Source of the DNA: an uncultured Bradymonadales bacterium
GTDB lineage: Bacteria; Myxococcota_A; Bradymonadia; Bradymonadales; Bradymonadaceae
Direction: 5' to 3'
DNA length: 64,000 nucleotides
Assembly (NCBI GenBank): GCA_964411125.1
Contig: CAYPJU010000014.1
Location: 5,566-69,565, forward strand
In this document: positions 5,095-50,002 of the stretch, in pieces
How positions within the stretch are numbered: the stretch's first letter is position 1
Layout: the number at the start of each line of letters is the position of its first letter
Notes under the pieces: model-generated
Told to the model about the DNA's origin: nothing
The model's database searches: none
Seen by the model: the letters and a program-made list of their open reading frames with translations, nothing else
Made by a program: the position numbers and the translations under genes

Positions 5095-6305
5095 AGTGGT
5101 ACGACGGACCCGTCGGTGTCGAACCGGTAAAGACCGAGGACACGGATCGGCTCACCAGAGGGGCCGAATCGCAGGGGCCCTGCGACGCCGGTCCACGGCT
5201 TGGTGGTCGGCAGGCTGCGTACGAGTGCCGCGCGAGGCTTCTCCCGTCCGATCGAACTCGCCCCGAGCTGGCTGACGAGCCAGACGATATCGAACGTTTC
5301 GGCCTCGATGTCGACGGGGCGGCGACCGGTCGCCGCTTCGAACGTCCGGGAGAACTCTTCCTGCCGCCCCCCGGCCGCATCGCCAGCGAACGTGTCGACG
5401 TAGAGCGCTCCGGCGGCCGCTCCGCCCCCCAGCTCCATCGTCTTGCCCTGCCAACCCGACAGGCCGAGGAGCTGCACGGCGACCCCCTCCCCTCCGTCGC
5501 CATTCTGAATGCCGACGACGGGAAGAAAGGGGAGGAGTCGGGCGACGCGGTAGTGGAAATCTGGGACGAAGAGGACCTCGAAATCGACCTTCGGCTTGCT
5601 GCCGAGCCGAGCGAAACCGCTGGCGTCGGTCTTCCATTTGCCGACCGTGCCTTTCTTCCCGAGGTAGACCTTCTTTCCCACGACGACGTCGAGGACCCCT
5701 TCGAAGTTGGTGGTGTCTTCGGGGTAGTTGGCGACGGCAGTCACGCGCCCTCCCCTGCTGGTGAAGCGCTCGGTGAAGGCAATCGCGGCGTCGGTCCCGT
5801 AGGTGATCTGTGGGTAAGCGACGGCCGCGGTCTTCACGTCGAGGTGGTCGATGGCGATGTCGGCCATCGCGGTCGCCTGTTCGGCCGGGCTGGTCCGCAC
5901 CCGGAAGACCCATCCTCCGGCGCGGTTGACGGACTCCGCGGCGGTGAGCGCAAAGAGAGGGATGCCGAAGCGCTGGGCGGTCGCGGCGGCGGCCTGAGAC
6001 TCACGAATCCCGAGCGGTCCGACGACGGCGACGACGGAGGGGTCCCGTGCGAGTTCGGTGACCGCTTTCACGGCGCCGGCAGGCTCGCCTCCGGTATCGT
6101 GCACCACGATTCGGGCGCCGGTGTCCTGTGCGGCCAGGCGGGCGCTCTCTACGATCTGCTTGCCGAGGGGAGCGTACTCGCCGGTCGTGGGAACCGCGAT
6201 TCCGACGGAAAAGCTCGCCGCCGGGGGTGGGGATTGCTGAGCGAGTGCAGACGGCCCCAGCATCAGGGCCGCGGTAGCGAGTGTCGCTGCGAGAAGTCGG
6301 GTCAA
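5091..6305 (-). CDS. periplasmic type-I solute-binding protein (Leu/Ile/Val-binding / LpoA-like family)
   Basis: Inferred TTG start at 6305 gives the signal peptide [24 protein letters not shown]. The mature part ([29 protein letters not shown]...VVGPLG) resembles the Peripla_BP_6 family. The upstream part of the 612-aa track ORF is a shadow of dnaJ. Confidence 0.7.
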
Positions 6306-7420
6306 TCGAAGAGCTCTTTCATCCGGGCGAAAAACCCCTTCGATTCGGGGTGTACCTCTTCGCCGGAGAGTTCGGCCAGCTCCTCGAGAAGCTCCTTCTG
6401 CCGGTCGGTGAGGTTCACCGGGGTTTCGACGACGAGGGTGACCAACTGATCGCCGGCGGTACCTCCACCGACGGACGGGAAGCCCTTCTTCTTGAGTCTC
6501 AAGACGCGGCCGGACTGGGTGCCGGCGGGGACGGTCATCTTGACCTTTCCTTCGAGTGTCGGGACGTCGATTTTCCCGCCCAACGCCGCGACGGTGAAGC
6601 TGATCGGGACGGTGCAGAGGAGATCGTCGCCATCGCGTTCGAAGAGGCTGTGCTCCTCCAATCGGATGACGATGTAGAGGTCGCCGCGGGGTGCTCCGGG
6701 GCTGCCCGGTGCGCCGCGCCCTTCCCAGCGAAGCTTCTGGTTCTCGCGGACCCCGGGAGGGATGTCGACCTCGAGGGTGGTCGAGCCCTGGACGAAACCG
6801 GACTGTTTGCAGGTCGGGCAGGGTTCGTCGATGTAGGTCCCGGTCGCTCCGCAGCGGGTGCAGGGTCGGGCCATGACGAAGAAGCCCTGCTGCTGCCGCA
6901 TCTGGCCGGTGCCACCGCAGAGGGTGCACGTGATGGGCTTGCTCCCGGGGGCCGCCCCGCTGCCGTCGCAGGTGTCGCAGGTGTCGAAGGTCGGTATTTC
7001 GACCTCCTTCTTGGCGCCGAGGGCAGCTTCCTCGAAGCTGATCTCGAGGTCCATGCGAAGGTCGGCGCCGCGGGATGCCCGTCGCCCGCCGCCGCGAGCC
7101 GCGCCGCCGCCAAACATCGACCCGAGGATGTCGAACAGATCCCCGAAGTCTCCCACGTTGACGCTTCCGGCCCCGCCGAACGGCGAGCCGGCGCCGCCGA
7201 AGCCCTTGGTCGTCCCGTAGCGGTCGTAGGCCGCCTTCTTCTGCGGGTCGCTCAACACCTCGTAGGCGCCGGCCACCCGCTTGAAGTTTTCTTCGGCGTC
7301 GGGGTCGTCGGGGTTGGCGTCGGGATGGTACTTGCGCGCCATCTTCCGATACGCGGACTTCACTTCGTCGGGCGACGCGTTACGGTCGACTCCGAGAATT
7401 TCATATAGGTCTTCGGTCAC
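6302..7420 (-). CDS. dnaJ: molecular chaperone DnaJ
   Basis: J-domain with YHPD, then a G/F-rich linker. Four CxxCxGxG repeats are present ([32 protein letters not shown]). Confidence 0.95.
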
Positions 7421-7447
7421 CAGAACAGGACCTCACGTAGATTCGAA

Positions 7448-9283
<1,836 letters not shown>

Positions 9284-9300
9284 CGTCTACTCTCTCGGTC

Positions 9301-10116
9301 TCAGTTCTGCTCTTCGGAATCGTCGCCCATCGCATCCGCCGTGGAGTTCTCGGCGGACTCGTCGGGAGTCGGCGCGGCCGTGTCCCCGGAGTCCTCTTCG
9401 GCTTCCGTGTCGGGCGGGGCGGGTTTGGCCGGTGCCGTGTTGCGAGCGACGACGACCATCGCCGGGCGGATGAGGCGGTCGTGCAGGTAGTAACCCTTCT
9501 GATACTCCTCGACCACCGTGCCAGTGGGGTACTCCTCGGACTCGACCTGCTGGATCGCTTCGTGTTTTTGTGGGTCGAACTCGGTCCCTTTCGATTCGAA
9601 GCCCTGCACTCCGTGCTTCTGCAGTGCGCCGACGAACTGACGCTGCACCATCTTGACGCCATCGATGACCGAGGATGCGTTCTCGGCCTTGTCTGCGTGC
9701 TCGAGGGCGCGCTCGAGGTTGTCGAGGACGGGCAGGAGTTCGAGGACGACGCGATCGATCCCGTACTTCCGGAGCTCTTCTTTCTCTCGCGAGGTGCGCT
9801 TACGGAAGTTCTCCAGGTCGGCGGCGGTGCGGAGGAGCCGGTTCTTCAGGTCGTCGCGCTCGGCGGAGACGGCCTCGAACTCGGCCGAGGAGGCTGCGGG
9901 AGGGGGCGAGGTCGGCGTCGCCGCGCGGCCTTCGACGGCCGACGTTTCGGCGGCGTCATCGGAGGTCGACGCGTCGGGCTCGAACTCCACCTCGCTCGCA
10001 TCGGAGTCGGGGTCGAGGAACAGATCGTCGATGGCGTCGGAGTCCGCAGGGGGCGTGCCACCTTCGGCCGCGCTCTCTTCGTTCTGCTTCTCTTCCGTTT
10101 CCCGATTGTCGGTCAC
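9301..10116 (-). CDS. grpE: nucleotide exchange factor GrpE (canonical copy, acidic N-terminal extension)
   Basis: 271 aa. RTAADLENFRKRTSREKEE...LLPVLDNLERAL...FDPQKHEA...RPAMVVV matches the GrpE pattern. It lies between hrcA and dnaK. Confidence 0.9.
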   Translation of the reverse strand: MTDNRETEEKQNEESAAEGGTPPADSDAIDDLFLDPDSDASEVEFEPDASTSDDAAETSAVEGRAATPTSPPPAASSAEFEAVSAERDDLKNRLLRTAADLENFRKRTSREKEELRKYGIDRVVLELLPVLDNLERALEHADKAENASSVIDGVKMVQRQFVGALQKHGVQGFESKGTEFDPQKHEAIQQVESEEYPTGTVVEEYQKGYYLHDRLIRPAMVVVARNTAPAKPAPPDTEAEEDSGDTAAPTPDESAENSTADAMGDDSEEQN

Positions 10117-10198
10117 CGCTCACCTCCATCCTAATGGGTTGCGCCACGGAGTCCGGCGCACGAGGAACAACTTCTGGCGGGGCTTCTCGGCCGGGCTT

Positions 10199-11224
10199 TC
10201 AGGCCCGGGATTCGAGTTCTCTACTTAGCACACGAGCGACATGGTCGACCAGTGGAATCACGCGCGCGTAGTCGAGGCGGAGCGGCCCGAGAACGCCCAC
10301 GACACCGGCCTGGTCGTCCCCTTTGTAGTACCCGCAGAGGACGAAGCTGAGGTCGTCGCCGAGCTCCCACCCGCTCTCCGGTCCAATCACGGTGACGGGG
10401 ACGCGCTCGGCACACACCTGGTCGAGAATCTCGATGACGCGTTCGCGCTCCTCGACTGCCTGCAGCAGGTCACGCAATCGCTGCATGTCTTCGGCCCACT
10501 CGACGAACTTGAAGGTACCGTCGACGTGGAGATCGGCGCGGTGCTCCCGCGCGACCTCATGGGCGACGGCGAGCGCCTGGGTCATGAACTTCTTGTACTG
10601 GGTGCGGCGATCCGTCAGCTCCTGTCGTACCCGGGTGCGCAGGGCGGGGAGCGTGGCTCCGCGTCCAATCTCGGCGAGGTAGTTCTGCATCGGCACCAGG
10701 TCGTGCGGATCGATGGGAATCTCGAAGGTGATGACCCGCTCGATCGTGGTGCCGTCGTCGTTGACGAAGATGGCGAGGACTCGCCGAACGTCGATGGAGA
10801 CGAGCCGAACGTCGACGATCTTGGTTCGGTTGGGATCGGGGCCGAGGACGAGCCCTGCCCCTTCCGAGAGCTGGCTGAGCACCGCAGAGGCCCAGCGGGC
10901 GACCGCCCGAACGTCGTCACCGTCTGGTTCGGCCAGCCCCTCGGGGAGTCGTGCCGCGGCGCTCTGGCGCCCGGCATCGGAGACGAGGACGTCGACGTAG
11001 GAGCGAAAACCGAGGGCCGTCGGTACCCGCCCAGCGGAGGTATGGGGCTGGGCGAGAAAGCCGTTCCGTTCGAGATCGGCCATCACGTTTCGGATCGTGG
11101 CCGAGCTCACCTTCACGCCCTCGCGTCGGGCGACGGCAGAGCTCGCCACGGGCTCGCCGTGGGTGATGAACTCGTCGATGACGAGGAACAGGATTTTTTT
11201 GTGTCGGTCGGATAGTTCGCTCAT
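10199..11224 (-). CDS. hrcA: heat-inducible transcriptional repressor HrcA
   Basis: ATG at 11224 (residue 141 of the 481-aa track ORF) is preceded by GGAGG. The N-terminal winged helix reads ILFLVIDEFITHGEPVASSAV...SSATIRNVMADLERNGFLAQPHTSAGRVPT. Confidence 0.85.
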   Translation of the reverse strand: MSELSDRHKKILFLVIDEFITHGEPVASSAVARREGVKVSSATIRNVMADLERNGFLAQPHTSAGRVPTALGFRSYVDVLVSDAGRQSAAARLPEGLAEPDGDDVRAVARWASAVLSQLSEGAGLVLGPDPNRTKIVDVRLVSIDVRRVLAIFVNDDGTTIERVITFEIPIDPHDLVPMQNYLAEIGRGATLPALRTRVRQELTDRRTQYKKFMTQALAVAHEVAREHRADLHVDGTFKFVEWAEDMQRLRDLLQAVEERERVIEILDQVCAERVPVTVIGPESGWELGDDLSFVLCGYYKGDDQAGVVGVLGPLRLDYARVIPLVDHVARVLSRELESRA

Positions 11225-11351: not shown

Positions 11352-12998
11352 ATGACGATGAGCGAAGAATCGAAGAACGTTTCGGGGACGGTTTGGATTC
11401 TGGTCGACCAGTCTTCGCGGGAGGCGACATACGAGAGCGTGGCCGCCTTGCTGCGAGAGGAAGACGGGGTCGAAGCGCAGACGGTGACGATCAGCGAAGT
11501 TCTCGGTTCGGTCGCTCGCGGGGCGCTCTCCGGCGGTACCGAGCGGCTTCTGCGAGGTCTGCGAGTCGCGATGAAGGGGCGTGCGCAGGACGAAGACTTC
11601 CTCGGGGCGGTGAAACGGGCGCGCCCCGATCTGCTCGCGATCACGAACCCTCGTTGGGTTCGCGCGCTCGGTCTGCTCGAGTCGATCTCGGGTGTCCCGA
11701 CGCTGCAGGTCGGCGTGTTTCCCGGTTACGGTCACGACGAGGGCTGGGCGCGCAGCGAGCTTCACGGTTTCGTCGTCCCCCACGACTCGTTCGCGGATCG
11801 GCTCGCCCGCGAAGGGGTTGCGCGCAGCCGAATTCTGCGTGGTGGTCCGGCGATTGGCGCCGCGTATGCGCGGGAGATGGATCGTGCCGAGGAGCGTTCG
11901 GCGCTCGGTTTCTCGGGCGACGTGAAGGTAGTGTTGGTGCGGGCGGAGACGTTGGACACGACCCTGCTCGAGAAGCTCGTCTTTCAGGCGACGCTGGTGG
12001 ATCGTCCGACGCGGTTCGTGTTCCACCACAACGGCGACGGGGCGGTAGCGGCCACGCTGCGCAAGGCGGCGTCGCAGTATGGTCTGCCGGCCGCGATGTT
12101 CGGCCGCGTGGGTGACCTGGAGCGCTACGTCCTCGCCGCCGACGCCGTGCTGACTGCGCCGCAGGATCCGCTGGTACCGGAGATTCTCGCGCTCGACCGG
12201 CCGCTGATGTTGATCGGTGGAGCCGGCGAACATCGTAGCCAGATCGATTTCCTTGCCGACATGGGGGCAGTGCGCTGGGTAGAGGACGTGTTGCGGGTGG
12301 GAAGCGAGCTCGAGCGAGACCTCTCGGACGAACGGCTGGAGCAGCTCTCGGCGGCGGCCGCCGATCTTTCGAAGACGAACGGCACACGCCAGGTGGCCGA
12401 CGCGCTCCTCGAAGCGCTGCGGGAGCGAGAAGCGTGGCTCGCCGCACCGGCATCGCGTGACGAGCCGGCGCCGTCTCCGGAAGACGACGGTTCGGACGAA
12501 GGAGGGAGTGAAGAGTCGGGCGAGAGCAGCCCCTTCGAGACGATCGGCGGGGTGGAGGACCCGCAAGCGCCCCGGGACGATTCTCGTCCGATGGGGCGCC
12601 TCTCCAAGTCGGAGGCCAAGGACCAGCTCGCAGCGCTGATCCTGAGCGAGCGAGAGATCGAACGAAAGCTGGCGGACTGCGAGAAGCAACAGCAGCGTTG
12701 GCGCGACCGGCTGGAGATGGCGCGAGATTGGGAAGAAGAAGACCTCGCGAAGGAGGCGGAGTCGATCCTGCGGGGCTACCTCGACGAAGCGGAGGGCTTG
12801 CAGGCCGAACGCGCGTCGATCGCCCGTCAGAAGGAGAAGCTGAAGCAGGCCGCGGGGGCCCCTCCTTCGAGCGGCGGCTCGGACGCCGGTAGTGGTTCGG
12901 ACCACGGATCCGACGTGGAGAAGCGCTTTCGGAAGATGGAGATCGACAGCGATCTGGACGACCTGAAGGACCGAATCCGTCGAGAGCTCGGAGACTGA
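11352..12998 (+). CDS. fusion protein: degenerate MGDG-synthase/UgtP-like (GT-B) domain plus PspA/IM30-like C-terminal coiled coil
   Basis: 548 aa with AGGAG before the ATG. The N-terminal 400 aa parallel UgtP/MGDG synthase block order (PDLLAITNP..., GGPAIGAAY, VKVVLV, APQDPLVPEILALDRPLMLIGGAGEH) but lack the GxGH motif. The C-terminus QQQRWRDRLEMARDWEEEDLAKEAESIL...SDVEKRFRKMEIDSDLDDLKDRI mirrors PspA helices. Judged by eye. Confidence 0.5.
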   Translation: MTMSEESKNVSGTVWILVDQSSREATYESVAALLREEDGVEAQTVTISEVLGSVARGALSGGTERLLRGLRVAMKGRAQDEDFLGAVKRARPDLLAITNPRWVRALGLLESISGVPTLQVGVFPGYGHDEGWARSELHGFVVPHDSFADRLAREGVARSRILRGGPAIGAAYAREMDRAEERSALGFSGDVKVVLVRAETLDTTLLEKLVFQATLVDRPTRFVFHHNGDGAVAATLRKAASQYGLPAAMFGRVGDLERYVLAADAVLTAPQDPLVPEILALDRPLMLIGGAGEHRSQIDFLADMGAVRWVEDVLRVGSELERDLSDERLEQLSAAAADLSKTNGTRQVADALLEALREREAWLAAPASRDEPAPSPEDDGSDEGGSEESGESSPFETIGGVEDPQAPRDDSRPMGRLSKSEAKDQLAALILSEREIERKLADCEKQQQRWRDRLEMARDWEEEDLAKEAESILRGYLDEAEGLQAERASIARQKEKLKQAAGAPPSSGGSDAGSGSDHGSDVEKRFRKMEIDSDLDDLKDRIRRELGD

Positions 12999-13053
12999 AC
13001 TCGTTGGAATCGACCGAGACATCGCGGCGCCGCCTCCGCGATAGCCGCCGCCC

Positions 13054-14139
13054 GTGCGTGGCGAACTTCCGCCGTTCGTCGCGCGCGCGATGAAGCGCTT
13101 CGTCGGATATTTTCTGGCTGCGCTCGCGATCGGCGCGTTCTTTCTCTATCTCGCGGCGCGTGAGCTGCCGTGGGAGGCCGTGGGAGATTGGCTCGCGACC
13201 GAAGACCTCTGGCACGTGGCGGGATGGTCGTTGGCTTTCACGTCGCTGTACGCGACGACACACTTCGCCCGGGTGGTACGCTGGTACTTCCTGGTGCGTC
13301 CCCTCGACGCGAATCTGAAGCCCTCGGACGTTCACAAGGTGTGCGCGGTCGGGCTCACCGCGATCCTGCTACTGCCGCTTCGGCTGGGGGAATTCGTTCG
13401 CCCTTACCTGCTCTCGAAGCGCTCGAGCCTTTCGATGTCGTCGGTGCTGGGGACCGCGGTGGTGGAGCGGGTGGTGGACGGGCTTCTGGTGACGGGGCTC
13501 CTCTTCGTGACGCTTTCGACGCTCCCGGTCGGCGAGAACGCGGGCTTCGCGCGCGCCGCGGGGCTGGTCAGCGCGGCAGTGTTCGTGCCGGCGCTCGTGG
13601 TGACGCTGCTGGCCCTGTGGCGGCGCGAGCTCGCCGTGCGGCTCGTGCGGCGCCTGGCGGGGACGGTATCGGAGAGTCTCGCGGAGAAGCTGGCGGGGCT
13701 CCTCGACAGTTTCATCGTGGGATTTCGCGCCCTGGTGAGCGGTCGCTCGGTGGCGCCGTTTCTGGCGCTGACAGCCTTCTACTGGGGCCTCAACGTATTC
13801 GGGATGTGGATGCTCGCGCGCGGGTTCGGGCTGGAGCTATCGCTGTGGGAGATGGCCGCGGTGCTCTCGGTGTTGGTCATCGGAATCATGATCCCGGCTG
13901 GTCCTGCGGGCGCCGGAAACTTCGAGTACTTCGCGCTGCGGGGGCTCGGACTCTTCTTGTTGTTGGAGGGGACGCAGGGGGTCGCGGCGGGCGCGTTCGC
14001 CGCGCTGCTCCACATCCTGCAGTTTCTGGTGATTCTGGTCCCGGGGCTCGTGGTGATGGCGAGCGACGAGGAGTCTCGCCACCTCGTGCGTCTTTCGACG
14101 GAAGCGGACCAGGCGACCCACGAGGGGTCCGCTCCGTGA
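13054..14139 (+). CDS. flippase-like / lysylphosphatidylglycerol-synthase TM-region family membrane protein (UPF0104)
   Basis: 361 aa and polytopic. The N-terminus FVGYFLAALAIGAFFLYLAARELPWEAV...FARVVRWYFLVRPL is typical of this family. The start (GTG 13054 or ATG 13090) is uncertain. Confidence 0.7.
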   Translation: MRGELPPFVARAMKRFVGYFLAALAIGAFFLYLAARELPWEAVGDWLATEDLWHVAGWSLAFTSLYATTHFARVVRWYFLVRPLDANLKPSDVHKVCAVGLTAILLLPLRLGEFVRPYLLSKRSSLSMSSVLGTAVVERVVDGLLVTGLLFVTLSTLPVGENAGFARAAGLVSAAVFVPALVVTLLALWRRELAVRLVRRLAGTVSESLAEKLAGLLDSFIVGFRALVSGRSVAPFLALTAFYWGLNVFGMWMLARGFGLELSLWEMAAVLSVLVIGIMIPAGPAGAGNFEYFALRGLGLFLLLEGTQGVAAGAFAALLHILQFLVILVPGLVVMASDEESRHLVRLSTEADQATHEGSAP

Positions 14140-14209: not shown

Positions 14210-14239
14210 TTGACCCCACGGCGAAGACGGGTCTATCTT
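14210..14239 (+). promoter_or_regulatory. candidate sigma70-type promoter (TTGACC-N18-TATCTT) for the receiver gene
   Basis: TTGACC at 14210-14215 and TATCTT at 14234-14239. An AGAGGG Shine-Dalgarno sits 5 nt before ATG 14269. Pattern match only. Confidence 0.3.
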
Positions 14240-14268: not shown

Positions 14269-14643
14269 ATGGAAGTGACCCGCAAGGTGATGGTCTTGGA
14301 TGACAACATCCTCGACGTCATGAAAGCAGAAAAGTATCTGGTGTCGGGCGGTTACGAGGTTGTCACCCTGACTTCGCCGAACGGTGCGCTGTCGAAGATC
14401 GACTACGAGCGTCCCGAGATCCTCCTGCTCGATATCGACATGCCTCGTCTGAACGCGATGGACCTTCTCGAGACGCTTCGCTCCAACGAAGACTACGACG
14501 ACCTGGTGATCGTGCTCTACAGCGATCGAGAGGCGGAGAAGCTGCAGAAGATCTGCATCGAGAACGACATCAACGGGTACTTCTGCAAGTCGATGGACGT
14601 CACTCAGATCTCCGCGTTTCTGGATAACTTCTACGAGTTCTGA
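14269..14643 (+). CDS. stand-alone response-regulator receiver protein
   Basis: 124 aa. The acidic pocket (LDDN), phospho-acceptor (LLLDIDMP), Ser (VLYS) and Lys (FCKS) are all in canonical positions. Confidence 0.85.
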   Translation: MEVTRKVMVLDDNILDVMKAEKYLVSGGYEVVTLTSPNGALSKIDYERPEILLLDIDMPRLNAMDLLETLRSNEDYDDLVIVLYSDREAEKLQKICIENDINGYFCKSMDVTQISAFLDNFYEF

Positions 14644-14724
14644 TTCCGGAATTTCAGACGCGGGGAACCGCGCAACGAGTCCACAGGCGGCGTCGGCGCG
14701 AAATCCGTCGGAAGAGAAGCGCCG

Positions 14725-16392
14725 ATGACCGAACCGAACACCGACAACTCGCCCTGCATCTGGCTGGTGGACGACGAGTCCGACCTCGTGGACACGACGT
14801 GCCAGATTCTGAGCGATGCGGGCTACGAATGCCGGGGCTTTCTGGACCCTCGCGAAGCGCTGGCGGCGCTGGACGCGGGTGAGCAGCCGGACCTCTTCCT
14901 GATCGACCTGCGTATGCCGCACATGACGGGTTCGGAGATGATCCGGGATCTGCGAACGCGTGGTGAGCTCGCGACGACGCCGATCATCGTCCTGACGGCT
15001 CTGACGACGGAGAGCAGCACCCTCAACGCGTTCGAGGCTGGAGCCGACGACGTCGTGCGAAAGCCGCTCACGACGGCAGAACTGCTGGCGCGGGTTCGAG
15101 GGCAGCTCGCGCGGCAGTCGCGTCTGGAAGAGCTCCGGACGCAGAACCGCGACCTGAAGGTCGTGACGGACCTGGCGCACGTACTGAGCCAGGGGACGGA
15201 GCTCCCGGACATCCTGCGGACGCTGGTCGACGGGCTCCGGACGGCGCTGGCGATCGACGAGGCGGCGATCTATCTGCTGCACGAAGAGACCGGCGAGCTG
15301 CACCGCGCCCTCCCGTCGGACCCGTCCCGGTCCGAGGGTTCTCCGAACACGACCCTCGACCTGCGGCGGCTGCGTCAGACGGCAGACACCCTCGCGGCGC
15401 GGCGGACGGCTTTCCTGGACGAAGCGGAGACCCGGCAACTTCTGGAGGTCATCGGGGGAGCTCACCCCCGACGCCAGCAGATGTCCTCTGCGATCGTGCC
15501 GCTCTTGCATCGAGAGCAATTCGTCGGGGTGATCGTGACGGTCGCAGACCGCGAAAACCTGGGGGTGACGTCTCGCGAGCGCTTCCTCTTTTCGATCATT
15601 TCGAGCCTCGCGGCGGTGGCGGTTCATCGAGCCGAGCTCTTCCACCGGATCATCCAGGAGCATGCGGGGCTCGATGCGGCGAACCGTGAACTCGCGGAGA
15701 CTCGGGACTTCCTCGACAACGTGATCCAGTCGAGCCCCGACGCGATCGTGGCATCGAATCGACCCGGGAAGATCGTCGTGTACAACCGGGCGGCCGAGCG
15801 GATCCTGGGGTGGACACCCGAGGAGGCGATTGGACAGGACGTCCGACTGCTCTACCCGGATGGAGGAGCCGAAGGAATCTTCAAGAAGCTGCGGTCCCCC
15901 GAGCACGGTGGGAAGGGGCGGCTCGAGCGCAGCCGCGGGGTGGTGGTCAATCGACACGGGGAGGAGATTCCGGTGGAGATCTCGGCGTCACTTCTCTACT
16001 CGAACGATTCGATCTCCGCGGCGGTCGGGATCTTCACCGACCTGCGCGGGCGTCTGCGGATGGAGGAACGGTTGCAAGAGGCGACGGAAAACCTCGAAGA
16101 GACTCGTCGGCAGGCGGTGGCGGCGGAGCTCGCGGGAGCAGCAGCGCACGAGCTGAACCAACCTCTGACGAGCCTCCTGAGCTACGCGGAGTTGCTCACG
16201 GGCACGGTGGCAGCCGGCGGGAAGGAGGCGCGCGCGGTGGAAGCGATCAATCGGGACGCGACGCGGATGGTCGAGATCGTGAAAAAGATCGGCAAGATCA
16301 CGGATTACCGGACCAAGGAGTACGTGGGCGGGGCCCGCATCGTGGACCTCGGTGGCGACGACGACGACGAGGGGACGGCAGAGCAGTCATGA
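14725..16392 (+). CDS. hybrid sensor protein: receiver + GAF-like + PAS + DHp (HisKA) domain, without HATPase domain
   Basis: 555 aa. REC motifs are WLVDDES, FLIDLRMP, VLTA and VRKP. The PAS region reads FLDNVIQSSPDAIVASN...VYNRAAERILGW. The H-box AAHELNQPLTSLLSYAELL is intact. The ORF ends about 75 aa later with no N/G1/F/G2 boxes. Confidence 0.8.
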   Translation: MTEPNTDNSPCIWLVDDESDLVDTTCQILSDAGYECRGFLDPREALAALDAGEQPDLFLIDLRMPHMTGSEMIRDLRTRGELATTPIIVLTALTTESSTLNAFEAGADDVVRKPLTTAELLARVRGQLARQSRLEELRTQNRDLKVVTDLAHVLSQGTELPDILRTLVDGLRTALAIDEAAIYLLHEETGELHRALPSDPSRSEGSPNTTLDLRRLRQTADTLAARRTAFLDEAETRQLLEVIGGAHPRRQQMSSAIVPLLHREQFVGVIVTVADRENLGVTSRERFLFSIISSLAAVAVHRAELFHRIIQEHAGLDAANRELAETRDFLDNVIQSSPDAIVASNRPGKIVVYNRAAERILGWTPEEAIGQDVRLLYPDGGAEGIFKKLRSPEHGGKGRLERSRGVVVNRHGEEIPVEISASLLYSNDSISAAVGIFTDLRGRLRMEERLQEATENLEETRRQAVAAELAGAAAHELNQPLTSLLSYAELLTGTVAAGGKEARAVEAINRDATRMVEIVKKIGKITDYRTKEYVGGARIVDLGGDDDDEGTAEQS

Positions 16393-18188
16393 CCGACCTG
16401 GACTTCGCATCGATTTTCGAACAGTTGCCGGACGCTCTCGCCGTCTGCGACGACGAAGGGCGCCTCACGGCGATGAACGCACGCGCGCGCGAGCTGCTCG
16501 GTGCGAAAGCCGGGGATACGGTGCATCTCGACTTACGGGCGCGCGAGACGGTCCGACAGATTCGCCTGACGGACGCTGCCTCTCAGGAATTCTATCTCGC
16601 AGACGTCCAGGTGACCGGCGCACGCAGGGCGCGCGTCAGCGCATCGCTGCACCCCCTGGACGGCGGAGGCTATCGTGTGACGCTGAGCGGGGACGGCCCG
16701 AGCGGCACGTTGACCCCCAACCTGCGGATGATGGAAGCGCTGGTGAACGTGGGACGGCACCTCGAGTTGTTCCGCACGGCGGACAAGACGCTCGCGCTCT
16801 TCGAAGCTTGCTTCGCGGACATCTTCCCCGAGTACTCGTTCCGCATCGTGCTCGACGGCGAGGTTCTTCACGAGCATTCGGCGTGGGGTGGTGGGGCCAC
16901 GGGGCAACCCTTCGACGTGGATCCTCGCGGTCTGGTGCGCGTGGAGGAGCTCGCCTTCGACGGTGCGGCGGCGGGATGGCGAGCTCCGATGCACGGGCAC
17001 AGCGGCGTCCGAGGCTACCTGCAGGTCGAGCGACAGAGTACGGAGAAGTTTCGGGTTTCGGAGCGTCAGGCGTTCGAGACTTTCAATCAACAGCTCTCAC
17101 TCGCCCTCGGGCGAGTCACGGTCGATCGAGACGTCGCGGTGGGACCGATCATCGACCAGCTCGATGCGATCGTCGTGGTCTGCGATTCCCGGCGCCGCAT
17201 TCAGGTGGTGAACCGAACGTTCGAAACGCTTGCGGGCTCCCACGGGGTCGCGGGTCGCGACATCGTCGATTTCTTCGAAGCTTCGGGGGCGGCGAAGATC
17301 CGCACGACGGCCGCAGGGGTGATGGCGGGACAGGAGGCGGACGTCTTCGAAGCGGGGCTTCTTCACGCCGGCCGTTCGCCGGTCTCCCTACGGATCCAGA
17401 TTGCGGCGAACCGCTCCGGCGAATCGGACAAGGCGGCGGGGTTCATCCTGACGGGACAGCAGAGCGAGGTGAACCTGGTCGAGATCGAGGCGCGGATGAC
17501 GCGGGCGGAGCAGCTCCTCAACGTCGGGCAGCTCGCGAGCGGCGTGGCCCACGAGTTGAAGAATCCGCTGACGTCGATCCTGAACTACGCGGAGTATCTG
17601 TTGATGAAGTATCAGGATTCACTGTTCGAGGATCGGGACAGCGACCGCCTGCGTCGTATCATCGAGGGGGTGGAGCGGATCGACACCTTCGTGAACGACC
17701 TGGTGGTGCTCGCCCGGCCCTCGGAGACGGAGGTTTCGCAGACTGTCGACCTCCACGCGGTGGTGCGTGAATCGGGGCTGATCTGTGAGGTGGCGCTGCG
17801 GCAGAGCCAGACGCAGTTCCAGGTCGATCTGGCCGACCGTCCGCTCCGTGTGATGGGGAGTCCCCATCAGCTCAAGCAGGTCTTCGTCAACCTCATCACG
17901 AATGCCACGAAGGCGATGGAAGAGGAGCCGGGCACGATCAAAATTTCGACGTGGTCCGATGATGGTATGGTGTACGCCGAGGTAGCCGACGACGCTACGG
18001 GTATGTCCGCGGAGACGATGGGGCATATCTTCGAGCCGTTCTTCACGACACGTGCGGGTCGCGGCGGCTCGGGGGTCGGGCTCGCGCTCGTGAAGACGAT
18101 CATCGAGCGTCACGGAGGCTCGGTGTCGGTCGATTCGGAGCTCGGCATCGGCACCACGTTCACCATCGTCCTGCCGGAGGCAGAATAG
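16389..18188 (+). CDS. PAS-domain sensor histidine kinase (complete HisKA + HATPase_c)
   Basis: The inferred ATG at 16389 overlaps the upstream stop (ATGA). 599 aa. H-box AHELKNPLTS, N-box NLITNATKAM, G1 DDATGM, F FEPFFTT and G2 GGSGVGLALV are all present. Confidence 0.85.
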   Translation: MTDLDFASIFEQLPDALAVCDDEGRLTAMNARARELLGAKAGDTVHLDLRARETVRQIRLTDAASQEFYLADVQVTGARRARVSASLHPLDGGGYRVTLSGDGPSGTLTPNLRMMEALVNVGRHLELFRTADKTLALFEACFADIFPEYSFRIVLDGEVLHEHSAWGGGATGQPFDVDPRGLVRVEELAFDGAAAGWRAPMHGHSGVRGYLQVERQSTEKFRVSERQAFETFNQQLSLALGRVTVDRDVAVGPIIDQLDAIVVVCDSRRRIQVVNRTFETLAGSHGVAGRDIVDFFEASGAAKIRTTAAGVMAGQEADVFEAGLLHAGRSPVSLRIQIAANRSGESDKAAGFILTGQQSEVNLVEIEARMTRAEQLLNVGQLASGVAHELKNPLTSILNYAEYLLMKYQDSLFEDRDSDRLRRIIEGVERIDTFVNDLVVLARPSETEVSQTVDLHAVVRESGLICEVALRQSQTQFQVDLADRPLRVMGSPHQLKQVFVNLITNATKAMEEEPGTIKISTWSDDGMVYAEVADDATGMSAETMGHIFEPFFTTRAGRGGSGVGLALVKTIIERHGGSVSVDSELGIGTTFTIVLPEAE

Positions 18189-18190
18189 GT

Positions 18191-19153
18191 TTGGTCAACA
18201 GTCGCAATCGAATCTTCGGAGTGGGCTCGATGGCCGCGGCCCTGGGGGTGGGGTTGTTCCTGTTGGTGTCGCCTCCGGTGGAGCGCGAAGCGCACCTCTC
18301 CGTGGTCCGCGACGGGGAGCAGGCGAACATCGAGAGTTCGATGCGGCACCTCTGTTGGATCGAGTCGGGGGTGACGGGGCTCAACGAGCTGCTGCCAGGG
18401 CTCGACGTCGAACGTCGGCGCGAGATTTTGCAGACGGCCGATTCGTTGGGCTGTCTGTCGCAATTGGCACCATCGATCCAGGCGTCGTACTTCATCATCG
18501 AGGCGGACGGAACAGGTCACGTCGAGAAAGCGATGAGCTTCGAGGAAGCGGCGCTCGAGCCGGCGCTCGAAGCGATCGAGTACACCGATCCAGCCGTGGC
18601 GCGTCGTGGCGCGACGGTCCTCGCCGTGCTGGCGAGACGACTGACGCCGGACCAGCAACAGCGGACCGCGGCAGCGCTCGACAACCTGCCTCCGAGCAGC
18701 GAGCGGACGGAGCTCGCCCGGCGCCTTCGGCTCGTCCCCCCCGGGCCGGGGCCCGGCGCGGAAACCGAGACGACGATGGGGAAAGAAGAGGACGTTCGAG
18801 CAGAGCCGTTCGCGGGAGCGGGTGCGGGGTCGGACTTCGAGTCTTTCAAGCTCCGAGAGCCGACCCTGGAGATCGAGTCTGACGGTTTGCTGTTCGCCGC
18901 GCCGGCCGACCCGGACGCGGAGTCGGCCGACGAAAGGGAGGACGACGACGTCCACGAGGAAGAGCCGCGCGAGCCCGAGGAAGTGGTGTCGGACGGCGAC
19001 GACGAGCCCGACGACGCCCAGGGAACCCAAGATGAGTCAGCGGTAGCGCCCTCCCCTCCTCCCCGGTCAGGAAAGCCGAAGAGGGGCGTCGCGCCGGCGG
19101 AGGAGAGTTCGGATGCCGGCACATCGCCCGAGGACGGAGGCGACGATGGGTGA
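18191..19153 (+). CDS. hypothetical membrane-anchored protein with long acidic disordered tail
   Basis: 320 aa from TTG 18191 (alternative ATG 18230). It has an N-terminal hydrophobic segment AAALGVGLFLLV. The C-terminal 120 aa are rich in D/E/P. No family recognised. Confidence 0.5.
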   Translation: MVNSRNRIFGVGSMAAALGVGLFLLVSPPVEREAHLSVVRDGEQANIESSMRHLCWIESGVTGLNELLPGLDVERRREILQTADSLGCLSQLAPSIQASYFIIEADGTGHVEKAMSFEEAALEPALEAIEYTDPAVARRGATVLAVLARRLTPDQQQRTAAALDNLPPSSERTELARRLRLVPPGPGPGAETETTMGKEEDVRAEPFAGAGAGSDFESFKLREPTLEIESDGLLFAAPADPDAESADEREDDDVHEEEPREPEEVVSDGDDEPDDAQGTQDESAVAPSPPPRSGKPKRGVAPAEESSDAGTSPEDGGDDG

Positions 19154-19868
19154 TGCGGTGATCGCCAGCATCTTGATCTCGGCGACCTTCGTGGTCGTCG
19201 TGGGCCTTCATGCTTATCGGTGGCTGTCGTGGCGGAACCGGCAGTCGAAGTCTCCCTACGCGTTTCTGGTGGAGTCGTTCGCGTTCGATCGTTCGAGTGA
19301 GCGTAGAATCGCGGACACGCGCGTGACGCGCTACTCCGGCCGCTTTCGGGGAATGAGGGTCACGCTCGAACGAGGCGACTCCGATCACGACGAGTACCTT
19401 CGCATTCACATTCGGTTCGAAGACGACCTGGAATTCGGGGTCCGCATCTCTTCGGAGCACGAGGACGACCTGATGGTTCGGCTGAAGCGCATGCGAGAGA
19501 TGCAGATCGGCTCGCACCATTTCGACTCGGAGTTCCTTCTGCTTTCGAGAGACGAGGAGCGCATGAAGCAGCTCCTGGATCACGACACCCGGCGGATGCT
19601 GATGCAGACCCGCAAGTCCGTGAAGGGGATGCGGCTGGACGACATCGGGCTGCATCTTCACGTGGTGGGAGAGAAGAGTCGCGAAGCGCTCACGGAGATC
19701 CTCGATGGCGGTGTGCAGTTGTGCGACTACGTTGCGCGACGCGCCGAGGACGTCCTGGCGGCGGAGGCCGAGGCGCAGAAAGAACAAGAGGGACCGGTTC
19801 CAGCGTTCACTCCGGTCCCGGGGACGATGACGTCCATCTCCGGCGAACGAAAGGAATCGGCACCTTGA
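19146..19868 (+). CDS. hypothetical protein with N-terminal TM helix
   Basis: The inferred ATG at 19146 overlaps the upstream stop by 8 nt. 240 aa. The N-terminus is AVIASILISATFVVVVGL. No family recognised. Confidence 0.5.
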   Translation: MGDAVIASILISATFVVVVGLHAYRWLSWRNRQSKSPYAFLVESFAFDRSSERRIADTRVTRYSGRFRGMRVTLERGDSDHDEYLRIHIRFEDDLEFGVRISSEHEDDLMVRLKRMREMQIGSHHFDSEFLLLSRDEERMKQLLDHDTRRMLMQTRKSVKGMRLDDIGLHLHVVGEKSREALTEILDGGVQLCDYVARRAEDVLAAEAEAQKEQEGPVPAFTPVPGTMTSISGERKESAP

Positions 19869-20380
19869 GTTGGATACCCTGGATCATCACCGTGTTCACG
19901 GTCGGGATCTCGTCGATGCTCATCGCAGCGTATCGTCGCAAGGCGGCGCGGTTGCTCGTGGACGCCCGCGAGGAGCACGAGATGCAGGTCCGCCTGCTCG
20001 AGGACGAGAGCGACTCGAGGCTGAGGCGGTTGGAGCGTGAATCGGAGAGCACGAAGACGCTAGTCCGGGACGCACTGGTGGAGGACATTCTGCCGGTGTT
20101 CGATTCGCTCGACATGGCGGCTCGAAGTACGAAAGACCCGGACACTGAGCGCGGGATCTCGTTGGTGCAGGCGGAGCTCGTCGCTGCGCTTCGCAAGCAC
20201 GGCATCGCTCCGATCGAGCCGTCCGCCGGTGAGGCGTACGATCCGGCGCTGCACGAAGCGGCGGAAGTAGTGGAGGTCGCCGACTTCGAGCCGGGTAACA
20301 TCGCTCGTACGTACCGGATTGGGCTTCGGACCTCCGACCGTGTCATCCGCCCGGCGATCGTCGCCGTCGTCCAGAGCTGA
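19865..20380 (+). CDS. membrane-anchored GrpE-like protein (second GrpE paralogue)
   Basis: The inferred TTG at 19865 overlaps the upstream stop by 4 nt. 171 aa. TM helix IPWIITVFTVGISSMLIAAY, then a coiled coil. ILPVFDSLDMA...LRKHGIAPIEPSAGEAYDPALHEA...RPAIVAVV aligns by eye with the GrpE C-terminal half. Confidence 0.6.
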   Translation: MSWIPWIITVFTVGISSMLIAAYRRKAARLLVDAREEHEMQVRLLEDESDSRLRRLERESESTKTLVRDALVEDILPVFDSLDMAARSTKDPDTERGISLVQAELVAALRKHGIAPIEPSAGEAYDPALHEAAEVVEVADFEPGNIARTYRIGLRTSDRVIRPAIVAVVQS

Positions 20381-20409
20381 TCGAGGGCGGAGAGGTCGCC
20401 CGAGTTCTG

Positions 20410-20521: not shown

Positions 20522-20532
20522 CTCGAAAGACG

Positions 20533-20562
20533 AACCACCCTACCCGGGTGGTTTTTCTTTTT
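20533..20562 (+). terminator. rho-independent terminator after tRNA-Cys
   Basis: The 8-bp stem is AACCACCC/GGGTGGTT with loop TACCC, followed by TTTTTCTTTTT. The structure overlaps the last codons and stop of the convergent gene ending at 20540. Confidence 0.7.
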
Positions 20563-25880: not shown

Positions 25881-28800
25881 CTAGTAGATGTCCCAGAAGA
25901 TGTTGGTCTCCCCCGCCCCGCGGGTCCCGGCCTCCACCTCGATGAGCCAGCGCCTGGAGAGCCGATACTCGATGTTGAGTTCGGCAGCGTTCTCGTTGGC
26001 GTCAGCGCCGACTTTCGCCTCGATACTGAAGAAGAACGGGCCAACGTATCGTCCGACCTCGAAGGTCGGGTCGGCGAATCCCTCGTCGCCGGCCTCGACG
26101 CGAACGTTGAAACCAGGGACGACCTGCGCGAGTTGGTCTTCGAGGAATGTCGCGGCGAGGCCACTCGCGGCGCCGGCAGCGATGTCGGACGCTCCGGACT
26201 GTCCGACCTCGGCCTCGTTCGGCGGTCGGTTGGTGAGGAGAGTGTAGATCACGTCCTCCTCGGGAAGCTCCGGGTCGGAGTAGAAACGAATCTGGGGGTC
26301 GTCGGTTCGCCCCGTGACGCGAACGATGGCGTGCGGCTCCCCGTCGGAGGCAGTGCCGAGAGCAGAAGCGACGTTCCGGTCGTAGCTGTAGCGGGCTTCG
26401 ATCTGCAGGAGCGGGTTGGGCGGGTTTGCGCCGGTGAAAGTCACGATTCCCTCCTCGATCACGAACCGGCGCCCGAACACCTCGGCCTCGCCCCGCACGG
26501 TGCGGATGTCTCCGCCGAGCAGCGCTCCGCTCGAGAGGAGTTCCACGTCGACCTCGCCTTTGATCTCGACCTCGGCGAAGGGATGGCGGATCCAACTGTT
26601 CGGCTCGATCTCGACGACCATCCGAGCGTACGGTCGCCGCGAAGCGGCCGCTGCGGCATCGTCGAAGGTGAAGAGGTCGCTCGACCGTCGCTTGTTCTTC
26701 ACGATGACGATGTCGGAGTCGAGGGAGGTGGGATGCAGGGTCGTCGAGCTGGTCTCCGGGATGACGACCTCCAGCTTGGAGACGAGAGCGCGCGCGTCGG
26801 CGGACGTTCCGGAGAGGTTACCGGTGGCGTCGACGTCCGCGCTGACGAACGCGGTGATGTCGGCGAAGCCCGCGATGCTGAGGCTTCGGAGCTGGGCGGC
26901 GAGGTCGATCTCGCCCGGCTCGAACCCGTTCATCCGAAGGGTTCCGTCCGCCTTTGCGTAGCCACGTTCGTCGCGCAGGTAGAGGGTCTTCACATCGACG
27001 AGCCCCTGCCTGTCGATGGCGAGGTCGACCTGAATGTCGCGGAAGAACCGCGAGAACCCGGTCAGAAACATCTCGCCGTTACGGACCTGGAGCGCACCGA
27101 CGACGACGGGTTGTTCGAAGGTGCCGGACAGCTCGAGGTCGACATCGAGCTCCCCGTCGACTTCCTGGACCCAGTCTTCGAGGATTTCCCGGGGGAGGAG
27201 CCCGCCGACGTTGACGTCGTTTCCGAGTAGGCGCCCAGATATCTCGCCGTCGAGGAAGGTCTCGACCGGCTCTTCGGACTGCATCCAGCGGGCGAGATCG
27301 AGCTGCACGGGGAGCGAGGCGACCGCTTCCAGGACGGCATCGGGTCCGTGGCAGATTCGGACGTCGGCGTTGGCGCGGTTGTCCGAAGCATCGATCTCGA
27401 TGGCGACGGTGCCGCGGGACTTGTCCTGAAACTCGAAGTCGTTGATCGAAACGCGACTGTCGATGACGGGTGCGGCCATTGTCCCGCCGGCCTCGAGGTA
27501 GCCCTGAATCTCGCCCCGGAGGTTCGCGAATCCGTAGTCGACGGCGCTGAACTTACGGAGCGGAAGCGGCATCAACTGCGCGGTGAAGTCGAGCGGAACG
27601 GCGGCGATGTCCGTGTTTCCGAAGATGATCGCGAACGGCGTGGGGAGTCGCCCTCGCGCCTCGAGGATCGGTGAAGCGTCCCACTCGAGAGTAACCGAGC
27701 GGACCTCGGCGAGTTCTCGCGACAGGGACGCGTCGAGGTCGAGGTAGATATCGCGGTATCGGTCCCAGCCGAAGTCGTCGAGCCCGAGGCGGATTTCGGC
27801 GTCGGGCTGGGAGACGGTGCCTTCGCCTTCGAGTTCGAGGTCGATGAACCCCTCGACGTCGGCGCGCTGCAAGGGGCCTACTCGCAAGTTTCGCAGGTCG
27901 AACTTCTCGGCACTCGCCGAGAACGAGACGGGCGCGTTCTCGAGCCGGCTGGCCCAATCGACGGTGGCTCCCTCGAGCATCTCCCGTATCCAGTCCGCGA
28001 TGGGAGCGCGAACGCGAGCTTTCGCTTCGAAGGGCTTCTCCTTCTGGAACGCGAGGGCGCCTCGGAAGAAAAGCCCGGAGTCGGCTCGAGCGCTGGGGAA
28101 GTAGCTGAGTTCGATGTTCGAGGTGGCCGGGCCGAAATCGTAGGGAGCGCCCTGCGCTTCGCCGCTGGCGGTGACGTCCTCGATGTCGACGACGGTTCGC
28201 AGGACGGGGGCGTCGACTTGACCGCGCAGCTCTGCGACGGCCTTCGCAGTACCTCCGAGGTCCATGTCCGCGAGGTCGGGGAGCGGGCGGCTGAGCGCCG
28301 AGATGGGGAACTCGGGTACGGTCAGCGTCGCGGAGAGGTTTCGACGGCGTAGGAACTCGACGTTGAAGGAGGCGTCGACGTCGACGGGAATCTCTGCGAC
28401 GGCGTTGAGAAGTTCGAGATCGTAGCCGGTGACGACCCCCTTCTGGAGGCGGAGGAGCTCCTGATCGTAGCTCCCCTGGAGCGCGATGGTGAAGGGCCCC
28501 CACTCCTGCCACATGACGTCGGAGAGCACGATGTCGAAAGTGCTGGTGGGATCGTCGTGGGTGCCGCCCAGGGCGACGGATCCGTCGGCGGTCGCGGAGA
28601 AGTCCTCCAACCCGGTGACTCCGAACTGCGACGCCAGCTCTCCGAGCTTCAGATTCTCGAGCTCGGCCTGCAAGTCTTGGTCGACCCCGGAGCGGTACGT
28701 ACCGTCGACCCGCACGCGCTGGGTGGTCCCGTCCGCGGCGGGCTTCGTGAGAGTGAGGTCGCGGAACTCGAAGACCCCTTCCTTCACGTCGGCGCGGAAC

Positions 28801-31166: not shown

Positions 31167-31167
31167 C

Positions 31168-49863: not shown

Positions 49864-50002
49864 CCGCCCTGATGGCTTCGGTCCTGCCGACCAGTTCGGC
49901 CGGCGGTGTGGGTGAGTCTCCCACACGTGATGCAACTCCGAGCGTCGAGTGGTAGCCTGTGAGAAGCGGAGGGGGGCGCCGCACTCGCGCTCAGGGGACC
50001 TG

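Follow-up and report, generated by a model that had tools for sequence, protein, structure and literature searches.

A GrpE subfamily with an N-terminal transmembrane helix encoded beside two-component genes in Bradymonadales

The gene cluster and its products

We analysed 64,000 nucleotides (nt) of DNA from an uncultured Bradymonadales bacterium (Bradymonadaceae; assembly GCA_964411125.1, contig CAYPJU010000014.1, positions 5,566 to 69,565 of the forward strand), referred to here as the window, and focus on a cluster of six plus-strand open reading frames (ORFs) at 14269–20380, the last of which encodes a GrpE-family protein with an N-terminal transmembrane (TM) helix, TM-GrpE. The six ORFs start in order with ATG, ATG, ATG, TTG, ATG and TTG; an 81-nt gap separates the first two and the later junctions measure -4, +2, -8 and -4 nt. 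An earlier reading of the letters alone, hereafter the original prediction, had given the same six sets of coordinates and the same four junctions, all of which were reproduced exactly.

The first three genes encode two-component proteins. P1 (14269–14643, ATG) is a stand-alone CheY-like receiver of 124 amino acids (aa; PF00072, 52 bits) with the acidic pocket DD, the phospho-acceptor Asp, the Ser and the Lys all visible in the sequence. P2 (14725–16392, ATG) is a 555-aa REC-GAF-PAS-DHp(HisKA) protein (Pfam REC 83, GAF 34, PAS 55 and HisKA 37 bits) with an intact H-box, AAHELNQPL, and no HATPase_c domain in the Pfam scan. An ATGA overlap joins it to P3 (16389–18188, ATG), a 599-aa PAS-PAS-HisKA-HATPase_c kinase (HATPase_c 92, HisKA 47 and PAS_8 48 bits) in which hydropathy analysis identified no TM segment. 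These Pfam architectures match the receiver, REC-GAF-PAS-DHp and complete PAS kinase assignments made from the sequence by eye. The parts of a phosphorelay are thus present, comprising HisKA and HATPase_c in P3, receivers with the phospho-acceptor Asp in P1 and P2, and visible H-boxes, while Pfam detects no DNA-binding or other output domain encoded in the cluster.

Three genes for small membrane proteins follow. P4 (18191–19153, TTG) is a 320-aa N-terminally anchored protein with a hydrophobic segment and an acidic tail, and overlaps by 8 nt with P5 (19146–19868, ATG), a 240-aa protein with a TM segment and a domain resembling DUF3137 (a domain of unknown function). TM-GrpE (19865–20380, 171 aa) begins with a TTG that lies within a TTGA overlap with the P5 stop codon. 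Consensus scans place a promoter-like site, TTGACC-18-TATCTT, upstream of the receiver gene (14210–14239, plus strand), which is a hint rather than proof, and a weak terminator-like hairpin directly 3' of the cluster (20385–20401, plus strand); a stronger one lies at 20532–20554 behind the next gene downstream, a tRNA-Cys, and none was found within the cluster. This tRNA-Cys is the only RNA element that Rfam recognises in or near the cluster. The whole window contains no CIRCE site (the HrcA operator) with up to three mismatches, so there is no evidence for control of the cluster by HrcA.

TM-GrpE as a conserved member of the GrpE family

The original prediction had placed the last product in the GrpE family from an alignment by eye, and both profile and fold bear this out. 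TM-GrpE scores 91.4 bits against Pfam PF01025 (cut-off 25.8; E 6.8e-26), with residues 36–170 covering positions 28–165 of the 165-position profile, and phmmer matches it to six solved GrpE sequences at E <1e-8, including 4ANI at E 2e-16. Identity to the canonical GrpE of the window is 33% over 142 residues. An AlphaFold2 (AF2) model of the monomer, built from a family alignment of 55 sequences, has a predicted local distance difference test score (pLDDT) of 96.8 and consists of an unbroken helix at residues 4–88 that combines TM segment and stalk, a second helix at 92–111, and strands between 115 and 169. Together with the Pfam range, this secondary structure assigns stalk, four-helix bundle and beta-domain to aa 36–170 (19970–20374, plus strand). 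All significant Foldseek matches of the model are GrpE proteins, with TM-scores (template modelling scores) of 0.74/0.79 for human GrpEL1 (9BLT) and 0.70/0.78 for E. coli GrpE (1DKG). A chance coiled-coil match as the source of the resemblance was ruled out by the beta-domain alignment and the fold. On profile and predicted structure, the last product is a true GrpE-family member.

Of the positions relevant to DnaK contact, many are retained in the TM family and others (A67, N71, R104 and R183, discussed below) are lost or kept incompletely. We compared columns, in E. coli GrpE numbering, between the 55 TM-family sequences and 178 canonical GrpE sequences, and found R73 in 42 and 119 of them, respectively, R75 in 53 and 175, D100 in 55 and 177, G122 in 54 and 176, F149 in 54 and 177, P151 in 53 and 173, E155 in 52 and 138, R186 in 55 and 177, and V192 in 45 and 173. 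The beta-domain columns of the TM family are thus about as conserved as those of the canonical proteins, and the stalk arginine equivalent to R78 is present in 51 of the 55 members. The segment of the AADLENFRKR type, which had been described as absent from TM-GrpE, has diverged instead: in the alignment of LLEDESDSRLRRLERE with LLRTAADLENFRKRTSRE three conserved residues (Ala, Asn and Phe) are gone, and the arginine ladder RLRRLERE is retained.

What sets the protein apart is its N-terminus. Residues 4–22 have a mean Kyte-Doolittle hydropathy of 1.95 (KD19) and are followed by YRRKAAR; the coding region of the helix, aa 4–23 (IPWIITVFTVGISSMLIAAY), lies at 19874–19933 on the plus strand. A hydrophobic N-terminal helix is kept in all 55 aligned homologues, preceded by an almost uncharged stub of 1–3 residues (mean 1.6) and followed by a mean of 4.0 Lys or Arg within 15 residues, the charge after the helix exceeding that before it in 55/55 members. 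Because the positive charges follow the helix in every member, the anchor is predicted to be N-out and C-in with a cytoplasmic GrpE domain. A signal peptide in place of an anchor was rejected, given the lack of a basic n-region and the basic cluster after the helix in 55/55. The helix stands where an ordinary GrpE has its disordered N-terminal tail, and outside the membrane segment TM-GrpE has neither such a tail nor an IIM-like motif, the protein beginning three residues before the helix.

Translation from an internal methionine (Met18) would, as the original prediction noted, remove the helix. The upstream start is borne out by the helix in at least 55 homologues, by start codons (ATG, GTG or TTG) that directly precede the helix at all 11 loci, and by an identical 171-aa gene call on record at NCBI; the position of the start codons and the identical call make an internal start very unlikely. 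An NTGA overlap of the GrpE start with the P5 stop also occurs in six of six lineages checked that share the window's gene arrangement (type A), the window included.

Relatives were collected with HMMER, which was run exhaustively over 1.84 billion representatives, the best 150 clusters at 50% identity being taken. An N-terminal TM segment joined to GrpE was found in 63 of these 150 nearest clusters, with alignment to TM-GrpE from about residue 2 onward; the nearest relatives are P0004 (57% identity) and P0005 (45%). In the 55-sequence alignment the shared traits are the N-terminal TM helix, a basic flank, an R..RL.RE stalk motif and the GrpE core. A neighbour-joining tree of the GrpE core with corrected distances places 54 of the 55 TM sequences on one side of a split, and the five apparently non-TM sequences inside this clade all have truncated or mis-called N-termini. 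The clade was not resolved by the unweighted pair group method with arithmetic mean on raw identities. Named members come from Persicimonas caeni (WP_141200506.1), Lujinxingia litoralis (WP_111728369.1), metagenome-assembled genomes (MAGs) of Bradymonadaceae and Lujinxingiaceae, and one marine 'Deltaproteobacteria' MAG; they are all annotated just as 'nucleotide exchange factor GrpE'. Full-text literature searches returned no description of a membrane-anchored bacterial GrpE, in line with the earlier statement that no membrane-tethered exchange factor had been characterised in such an operon. TM-GrpE is a conserved, previously undescribed subfamily of the Bradymonadales.

Less sensitive searches returned little of this family. 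A word-indexed homology search with the single protein recovered TM-GrpE itself and two ordinary GrpEs, and a scan of genome contigs with the same protein gave nothing but canonical GrpE loci from unrelated phyla. An exact look-up of the protein in the contig index gave no record. A scan of metagenome contigs with a three-sequence alignment was dominated by canonical GrpEs because the pattern G[ED][AP][FY]DP.LH is common to them, and no P5 occurred in those 80 loci. The one TM-anchored GrpE that falls outside the main clade is P0102 (loci L009–L011; GCA_046766335.1 and related assemblies). Its gene is flanked by those for an NAD-dependent epimerase and for a 667-aa protein that matches DUF3604 faintly, and P0102 may represent a membrane GrpE that arose independently or diverged early.

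Conserved neighbours of TM-GrpE

The gene order of the window recurs in relatives. Locus L099, on a 54-kb farmland contig, reproduces the whole order of a 549-aa protein, LPG_synthase_TM, REC, REC-GAF-PAS-HisKA, kinase, P4, P5, GrpE, Cys/Met-PLP, AP-endonuclease, TamB and BamA, with identities to the window of 90% for the receiver, 65% for P2, 67% for P3, 43% for P4, 48% for P5 and 49% for GrpE. Loci L096 and L093 carry kinase, P4, P5 and GrpE with the same -8 and -4 overlaps, L104 has both kinase genes, P5 and GrpE without P4, and L097/98 retains P5 and GrpE. The original prediction had asked whether the order REC, kinase, two TM proteins and GrpE recurs in other genomes; it does so at protein identities of 37–57%, with the full order in L099 and parts of it in four more lineages. 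A second arrangement, type B (L007, L008, L094 and L102), has dnaJ-dnaK-grpE-(hrcA)-LPG_synthase_TM, a protein of about 580 aa and REC on one strand, with TM-GrpE divergent from REC and a 241–258-aa P5 homologue convergent with TM-GrpE. In the complete genome of P. caeni (L105) an operon encodes a PAS-DHp protein, which corresponds to the PAS-DHp portion of P2 only (61% identity), a kinase (43% to P3) and, last, a P5-like protein; here too the receiver gene diverges from TM-GrpE and the P5-like gene converges on it.

The stand-alone receiver is a neighbour of TM-GrpE on most of the long contigs, P1 orthologues of 63–90% identity lying beside it in L099, L105, L102, L007/8 and L094; P2 orthologues in L099 and L104 are 64–65% identical, and P3 orthologues in L099, L096, L093 and L104 are 59–67% identical. 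P5 adjoins TM-GrpE in nine of ten lineages (L007/8, L092/93, L094/95, L096, L097/98, L099–101, L102/103, L104 and L105, where the homologue is a 257-aa gene). The steadiest partners of TM-GrpE are accordingly P5 and the stand-alone receiver, rather than the kinases. REC, P5 and TM-GrpE remain together through inversions, and kinases are adjacent in six lineages; that the linkage survives inversions argues for function and not for shared descent alone.

P5 has an N-terminal TM segment at aa 4–22, as had been called from its sequence, followed by a basic flank and a DUF3137-like domain that is predicted to be cytoplasmic, giving it the same topology as TM-GrpE. The window protein scores 15.7 bits against DUF3137 (PF11335; E 0.014), under the gathering cut-off of 26.1, and six of ten family members likewise match below threshold (best E 3.2e-5), so that P5 is at most a distant relative of DUF3137. 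The type A and type B forms are related to each other with an hhalign probability of 99.4% (E 1.4e-21). An AF2 model from a two-sequence alignment is mediocre (pLDDT 64), and its resemblance to the fold of DR_1245, TtfA and ExsC, which are like type III secretion chaperones or YbjN, is weak (E 0.05–0.6, TM-scores 0.3–0.4) and no more than a hint. A profile search of the PDB with P5 gave nothing meaningful, nor did full-text literature searches give anything useful on DUF3137. In type A P5 proteins a long helix is followed in the C-terminal part by the strictly conserved motif PAFTP(V/L)PG, and the type B homologues have a different conserved tail, LGPR.PEK.GHYEQ; these may be short linear interaction motifs.

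P4 has no Pfam or NCBIfam match. A hydrophobic segment occupies aa 8–26, a domain of some 190 aa is conserved, as are two Cys within it, and the tail is acidic and rich in Pro; the protein as a whole has 66 Asp and Glu against 28 Lys and Arg. Of its earlier description as a TM protein with an acidic tail, the hydrophobic N-terminus and the acidity stand, while the topology is uncertain; the charge distribution weakly suggests a signal anchor with the bulk of the protein outside. Homologues occupy the same position in L099, L096 and L093 and are absent from L104 and the type B loci. Where P4 is present, TM-GrpE ends 3–22 residues past the beta-domain, and where it is absent (L104 and type B), TM-GrpE itself has an acidic tail of about 30–65 residues. 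In this small sample (L099, L096, L093, L104, L007, L094, L102 and L105) the acidic tail may be distributed in a complementary way between the two proteins.

On the opposite strand and divergent from the cluster lies the housekeeping hrcA-grpE-dnaK-dnaJ operon (6302–11224, minus strand; Pfam HrcA, GrpE at 188 bits, HSP70 at 796 bits, and DnaJ; the hrcA start at 11224 is inferred), with dnaK at 7448–9283 and the canonical grpE at 9301–10116, both on the minus strand. This operon also neighbours TM-GrpE in L007, L008, L094, L102 and L105. The earlier view of TM-GrpE as a specialised paralogue close to the housekeeping operon was correct, and the nearness is conserved in relatives. The canonical GrpE is long, with 271 aa in the window and 306–348 aa in relatives (L007, L102 and L105), and its Pfam domain covers residues 74–224 only.

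Between hrcA and the receiver are, on the plus strand at 11352–14139, a 548-aa protein without a Pfam match (11352–12998) and a membrane protein of the LPG_synthase_TM family (13054–14139; PF03706, 120 bits). This pair is present in every long related locus at 45–64% identity, and homologues of the 548-aa protein have faint MGDG_synth and PspA matches on record; the two may form a lipid or glycolipid module. On the other side, genes for a TamB-like protein (1761 aa) and an Omp85/POTRA protein (749 aa) at 25881–33417 (minus strand) are syntenic with the cluster in L007, L008, L094, L099, L104 and L105. At L097 (1200–3407, the P0006 lineage) the genes after TM-GrpE encode a protein with a TerB domain and one of 592 aa that has no Pfam match. 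In the type B loci L102 (10579–10606) and L105 (10573–10672) the 3' ends called for the convergent TM-GrpE and P5-like genes overlap, by 28 and 100 nt respectively, which reflects either true overlap or over-long calls of low-complexity tails.

Elsewhere in the window, the sole recognisable domain of a 1533-aa protein at 49949–54550 is a zinc-dependent phospholipase C, which could be relevant to a predatory lifestyle. ARAGORN calls a 93-nt tRNA-Gln(CTG) at 5103–5195 (minus strand) where Rfam at its gathering threshold gives no tRNA; probably the call is false or the gene is atypical.

A putative membrane station for DnaK

We posit that TM-GrpE is probably a membrane-tethered exchange factor for DnaK that works with P5 and a soluble phosphorelay, a reading that draws on conserved residues, predicted structure and gene linkage. 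In characterised systems the beta-domain provides the main GrpE contact with the nucleotide-binding domain of DnaK, and stalk arginines touch this domain as well as the substrate-binding domain (PMC10803776, PMC4753570). In TM-GrpE a single TM helix would run straight into the stalk, four-helix bundle and beta-domain, all of them cytoplasmic, and a dimer would engage the housekeeping DnaK at its nucleotide-binding domain by way of the beta-domain and the stalk arginine ladder. Domain opening would then release ADP, concentrating DnaK cycling at the inner face of the cytoplasmic membrane. The substrate-binding domain of DnaK, which in known complexes lies along the N-terminal end of the stalk, would here be held against the membrane, with the arginine ladder about 30 helical residues from the bilayer. 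Disordered GrpE N-terminal tails transiently fill the DnaK substrate site and help to expel the client (PMC12915176, PMC10803776); in TM-GrpE, without such a tail, the client might be freed only on ATP rebinding.

P5, co-anchored and translationally coupled, probably acts with TM-GrpE as an adaptor, regulator or client. Gene linkage would further tie TM-GrpE to the PAS/GAF phosphorelay formed by the P3 kinase, the REC-DHp protein P2 and the receiver P1. The direction could be either way, with the relay controlling the chaperone station or DnaK occupancy feeding the relay.

Several observations weigh against this proposal. TM-GrpE scores under the cut-off of every one of the 26 NCBIfam GrpE equivalog models (NF0107xx/PRK141xx), reaching at best 80.6 against 137 bits (NF010738), a model that the window's canonical GrpE passes with 172.6 bits; it is on this account not an orthologue of the housekeeping protein. 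A67, N71 and R104, all highly conserved in canonical GrpE, are lost in the TM family, and R183 is retained in just 33 of 55 members. Evolution has also been much faster, with identities of 33–49% for TM-GrpE compared with 54–59% for the canonical GrpE of the same genomes. The topology is a prediction from the positive-inside rule, and the neighbouring DnaK is the presumed Hsp70 partner in a genome that may encode further Hsp70 paralogues. At the level of the locus, kinases are missing in L007, L094 and L102, the P0102 lineage (L009–11) has no P5, receiver, kinase or dnaK operon nearby, and all related loci come from one order, so that synteny may be partly inherited.

The alternative that survives best reverses the emphasis between chaperone and signal. 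TM-GrpE and P5, with P4 where present, would provide the soluble kinases with a membrane module for input: DnaK normally held at TM-GrpE/P5 would be titrated by misfolded membrane or envelope proteins, or the state of the membrane would act on the stalk, and either would switch P2, P3 and P1, the main role being signalling and not client folding. We regard this as a tentative possibility. In its favour, the kinases have no TM segment or periplasmic sensor of their own, yet translational coupling joins them to three small membrane proteins, the cluster encodes no DNA-binding regulator recognisable by Pfam, and P5 ends the kinase operon in P. caeni. There is also precedent in DjlA and Rcs, where a membrane-anchored DnaK co-chaperone feeds a phosphorelay (PMC11709261), and in the GrpE stalk, which is a reversible thermosensor (PMC4753570). 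However, no direct tie connects DnaK to these kinases, and several lineages hold TM-GrpE, P5 and REC without adjacent kinases. The idea is compatible with a membrane exchange factor and does not exclude it. In its most specific form, which is speculative and to our minds rather unlikely, TM-GrpE, P5 and P4 would make up a 'chaperone-occupancy sensor' in which DnaK docked on the anchored stalk, a thermosensor joined to a TM helix, reports membrane or envelope proteostasis to the output-less phosphorelay via the CheY-like receiver.

It is improbable, in our judgement, that the linkage reflects descent only, with TM-GrpE, perhaps together with P5, serving as a membrane exchange factor or a DnaK sink and the other neighbours reflecting the kinship of the genomes. 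The informative loci do all come from Bradymonadales-like genomes, TamB/BamA, Cys/Met-PLP and AP-endonuclease are also syntenic without an obvious link, and the kinases are absent from some loci. Against this, the adjacency of REC, P5 and TM-GrpE persists despite inversion and reshuffling among type A, type B and P. caeni, kinases being adjacent in the six lineages mentioned, and the 4-nt NTGA overlap of P5 with GrpE and the 8-nt overlap of P4 with P5 are kept at just 37–57% protein identity. Least probable of all is a neofunctionalised GrpE fold without action on Hsp70, whose coiled-coil dimer and beta-domain would serve as a membrane scaffold for, for example, P5 or the receiver: the fast evolution, the scores under the equivalog cut-offs, the lost or incompletely conserved residues and the constant presence of a canonical GrpE, which means that exchange activity is not required of TM-GrpE, would all fit, but the DnaK-contacting positions of beta-domain and stalk are about as conserved as in canonical GrpE and the predicted fold superposes on DnaK-bound GrpE structures.

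If TM-GrpE is indeed a tethered exchange factor, it differs from known systems in instructive ways. To our knowledge, bacterial GrpE has been treated as a soluble, single-copy housekeeping factor, and we know of localised Hsp70 nucleotide exchange so far only from eukaryotic Snl1 and, indirectly, from the mitochondrial import motor. Canonical GrpEs (E. coli 1DKG, Mycobacterium tuberculosis 8GB3 and the window's own) belong to the same Pfam family and share the predicted fold of stalk, four-helix bundle and beta-domain, including the beta-domain signature F149, P151, E155, R186 and V192 and the stalk arginines. They have a disordered tail that binds the substrate site of DnaK (PMC12915176) where TM-GrpE has its TM helix, and they retain the A..N..F of the ADxENFRKR motif and R104, which the faster-evolving TM-GrpE has lost. 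They are also encoded in the hrcA-grpE-dnaK-dnaJ operon, in contrast to the two-component/P5 cluster of TM-GrpE. Closer to hand in a related group is GrpS (Mxan_6672) of Myxococcus xanthus, a non-essential second GrpE thought to serve specialised DnaK proteins (PMC10313047); it has no reported anchor and is encoded with the Hsp70 gene sglK and not with kinases or P5, a distinction drawn here from its published description.

Among anchored chaperone partners, proteobacterial DjlA resembles TM-GrpE as a DnaK co-chaperone with one N-terminal inner-membrane TM helix and a cytoplasmic functional domain, and has been linked to the Rcs phosphorelay and to post-translational control of membrane complexes (PMC11709261, PMC10754441). 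DjlA is, however, a J-domain protein that stimulates ATP hydrolysis rather than an exchange factor, is unrelated in fold and in the step of the cycle at which it acts, and is not encoded together with kinases in one operon. Conceptually, the nearest analogue is yeast Snl1, in which a TM anchor in the endoplasmic reticulum precedes a cytosolic Hsp70 exchange domain (PMC3962485). Snl1 differs in being eukaryotic, in having a BAG fold without homology to GrpE, and in having no link to two-component systems. Mitochondrial Mge1/GrpEL1 at TIM23, the best structural match of the model (9BLT, TM-score 0.74–0.79), is a GrpE-family factor for an Hsp70 that works at a membrane. Mge1/GrpEL1 itself is soluble and comes near the membrane through the binding of Hsp70 to Tim44, with no anchor on the exchange factor.

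A conserved GrpE family with its own membrane helix had gone unnoticed; by gene order it is tied genetically to an uncharacterised membrane protein and a phosphorelay. If the proposed function is right, a conserved anchored GrpE would demonstrate that nucleotide exchange in the Hsp70 cycle can be localised in bacteria, and should the occupancy-sensor idea hold, an Hsp70 exchange factor would serve as a receptor in signalling and not as a folding co-factor. What the GrpE tail does is a current question (PMC12915176, PMC10803776), on which TM-GrpE, without a substrate-displacing tail, amounts to a natural experiment, and the locus gives the DUF3137-like family its first functional context. For the predatory Bradymonadales, TM-GrpE provides a handle on the use of DnaK at the membrane, and the cultured carriers Persicimonas caeni and Lujinxingia litoralis make the idea directly testable.

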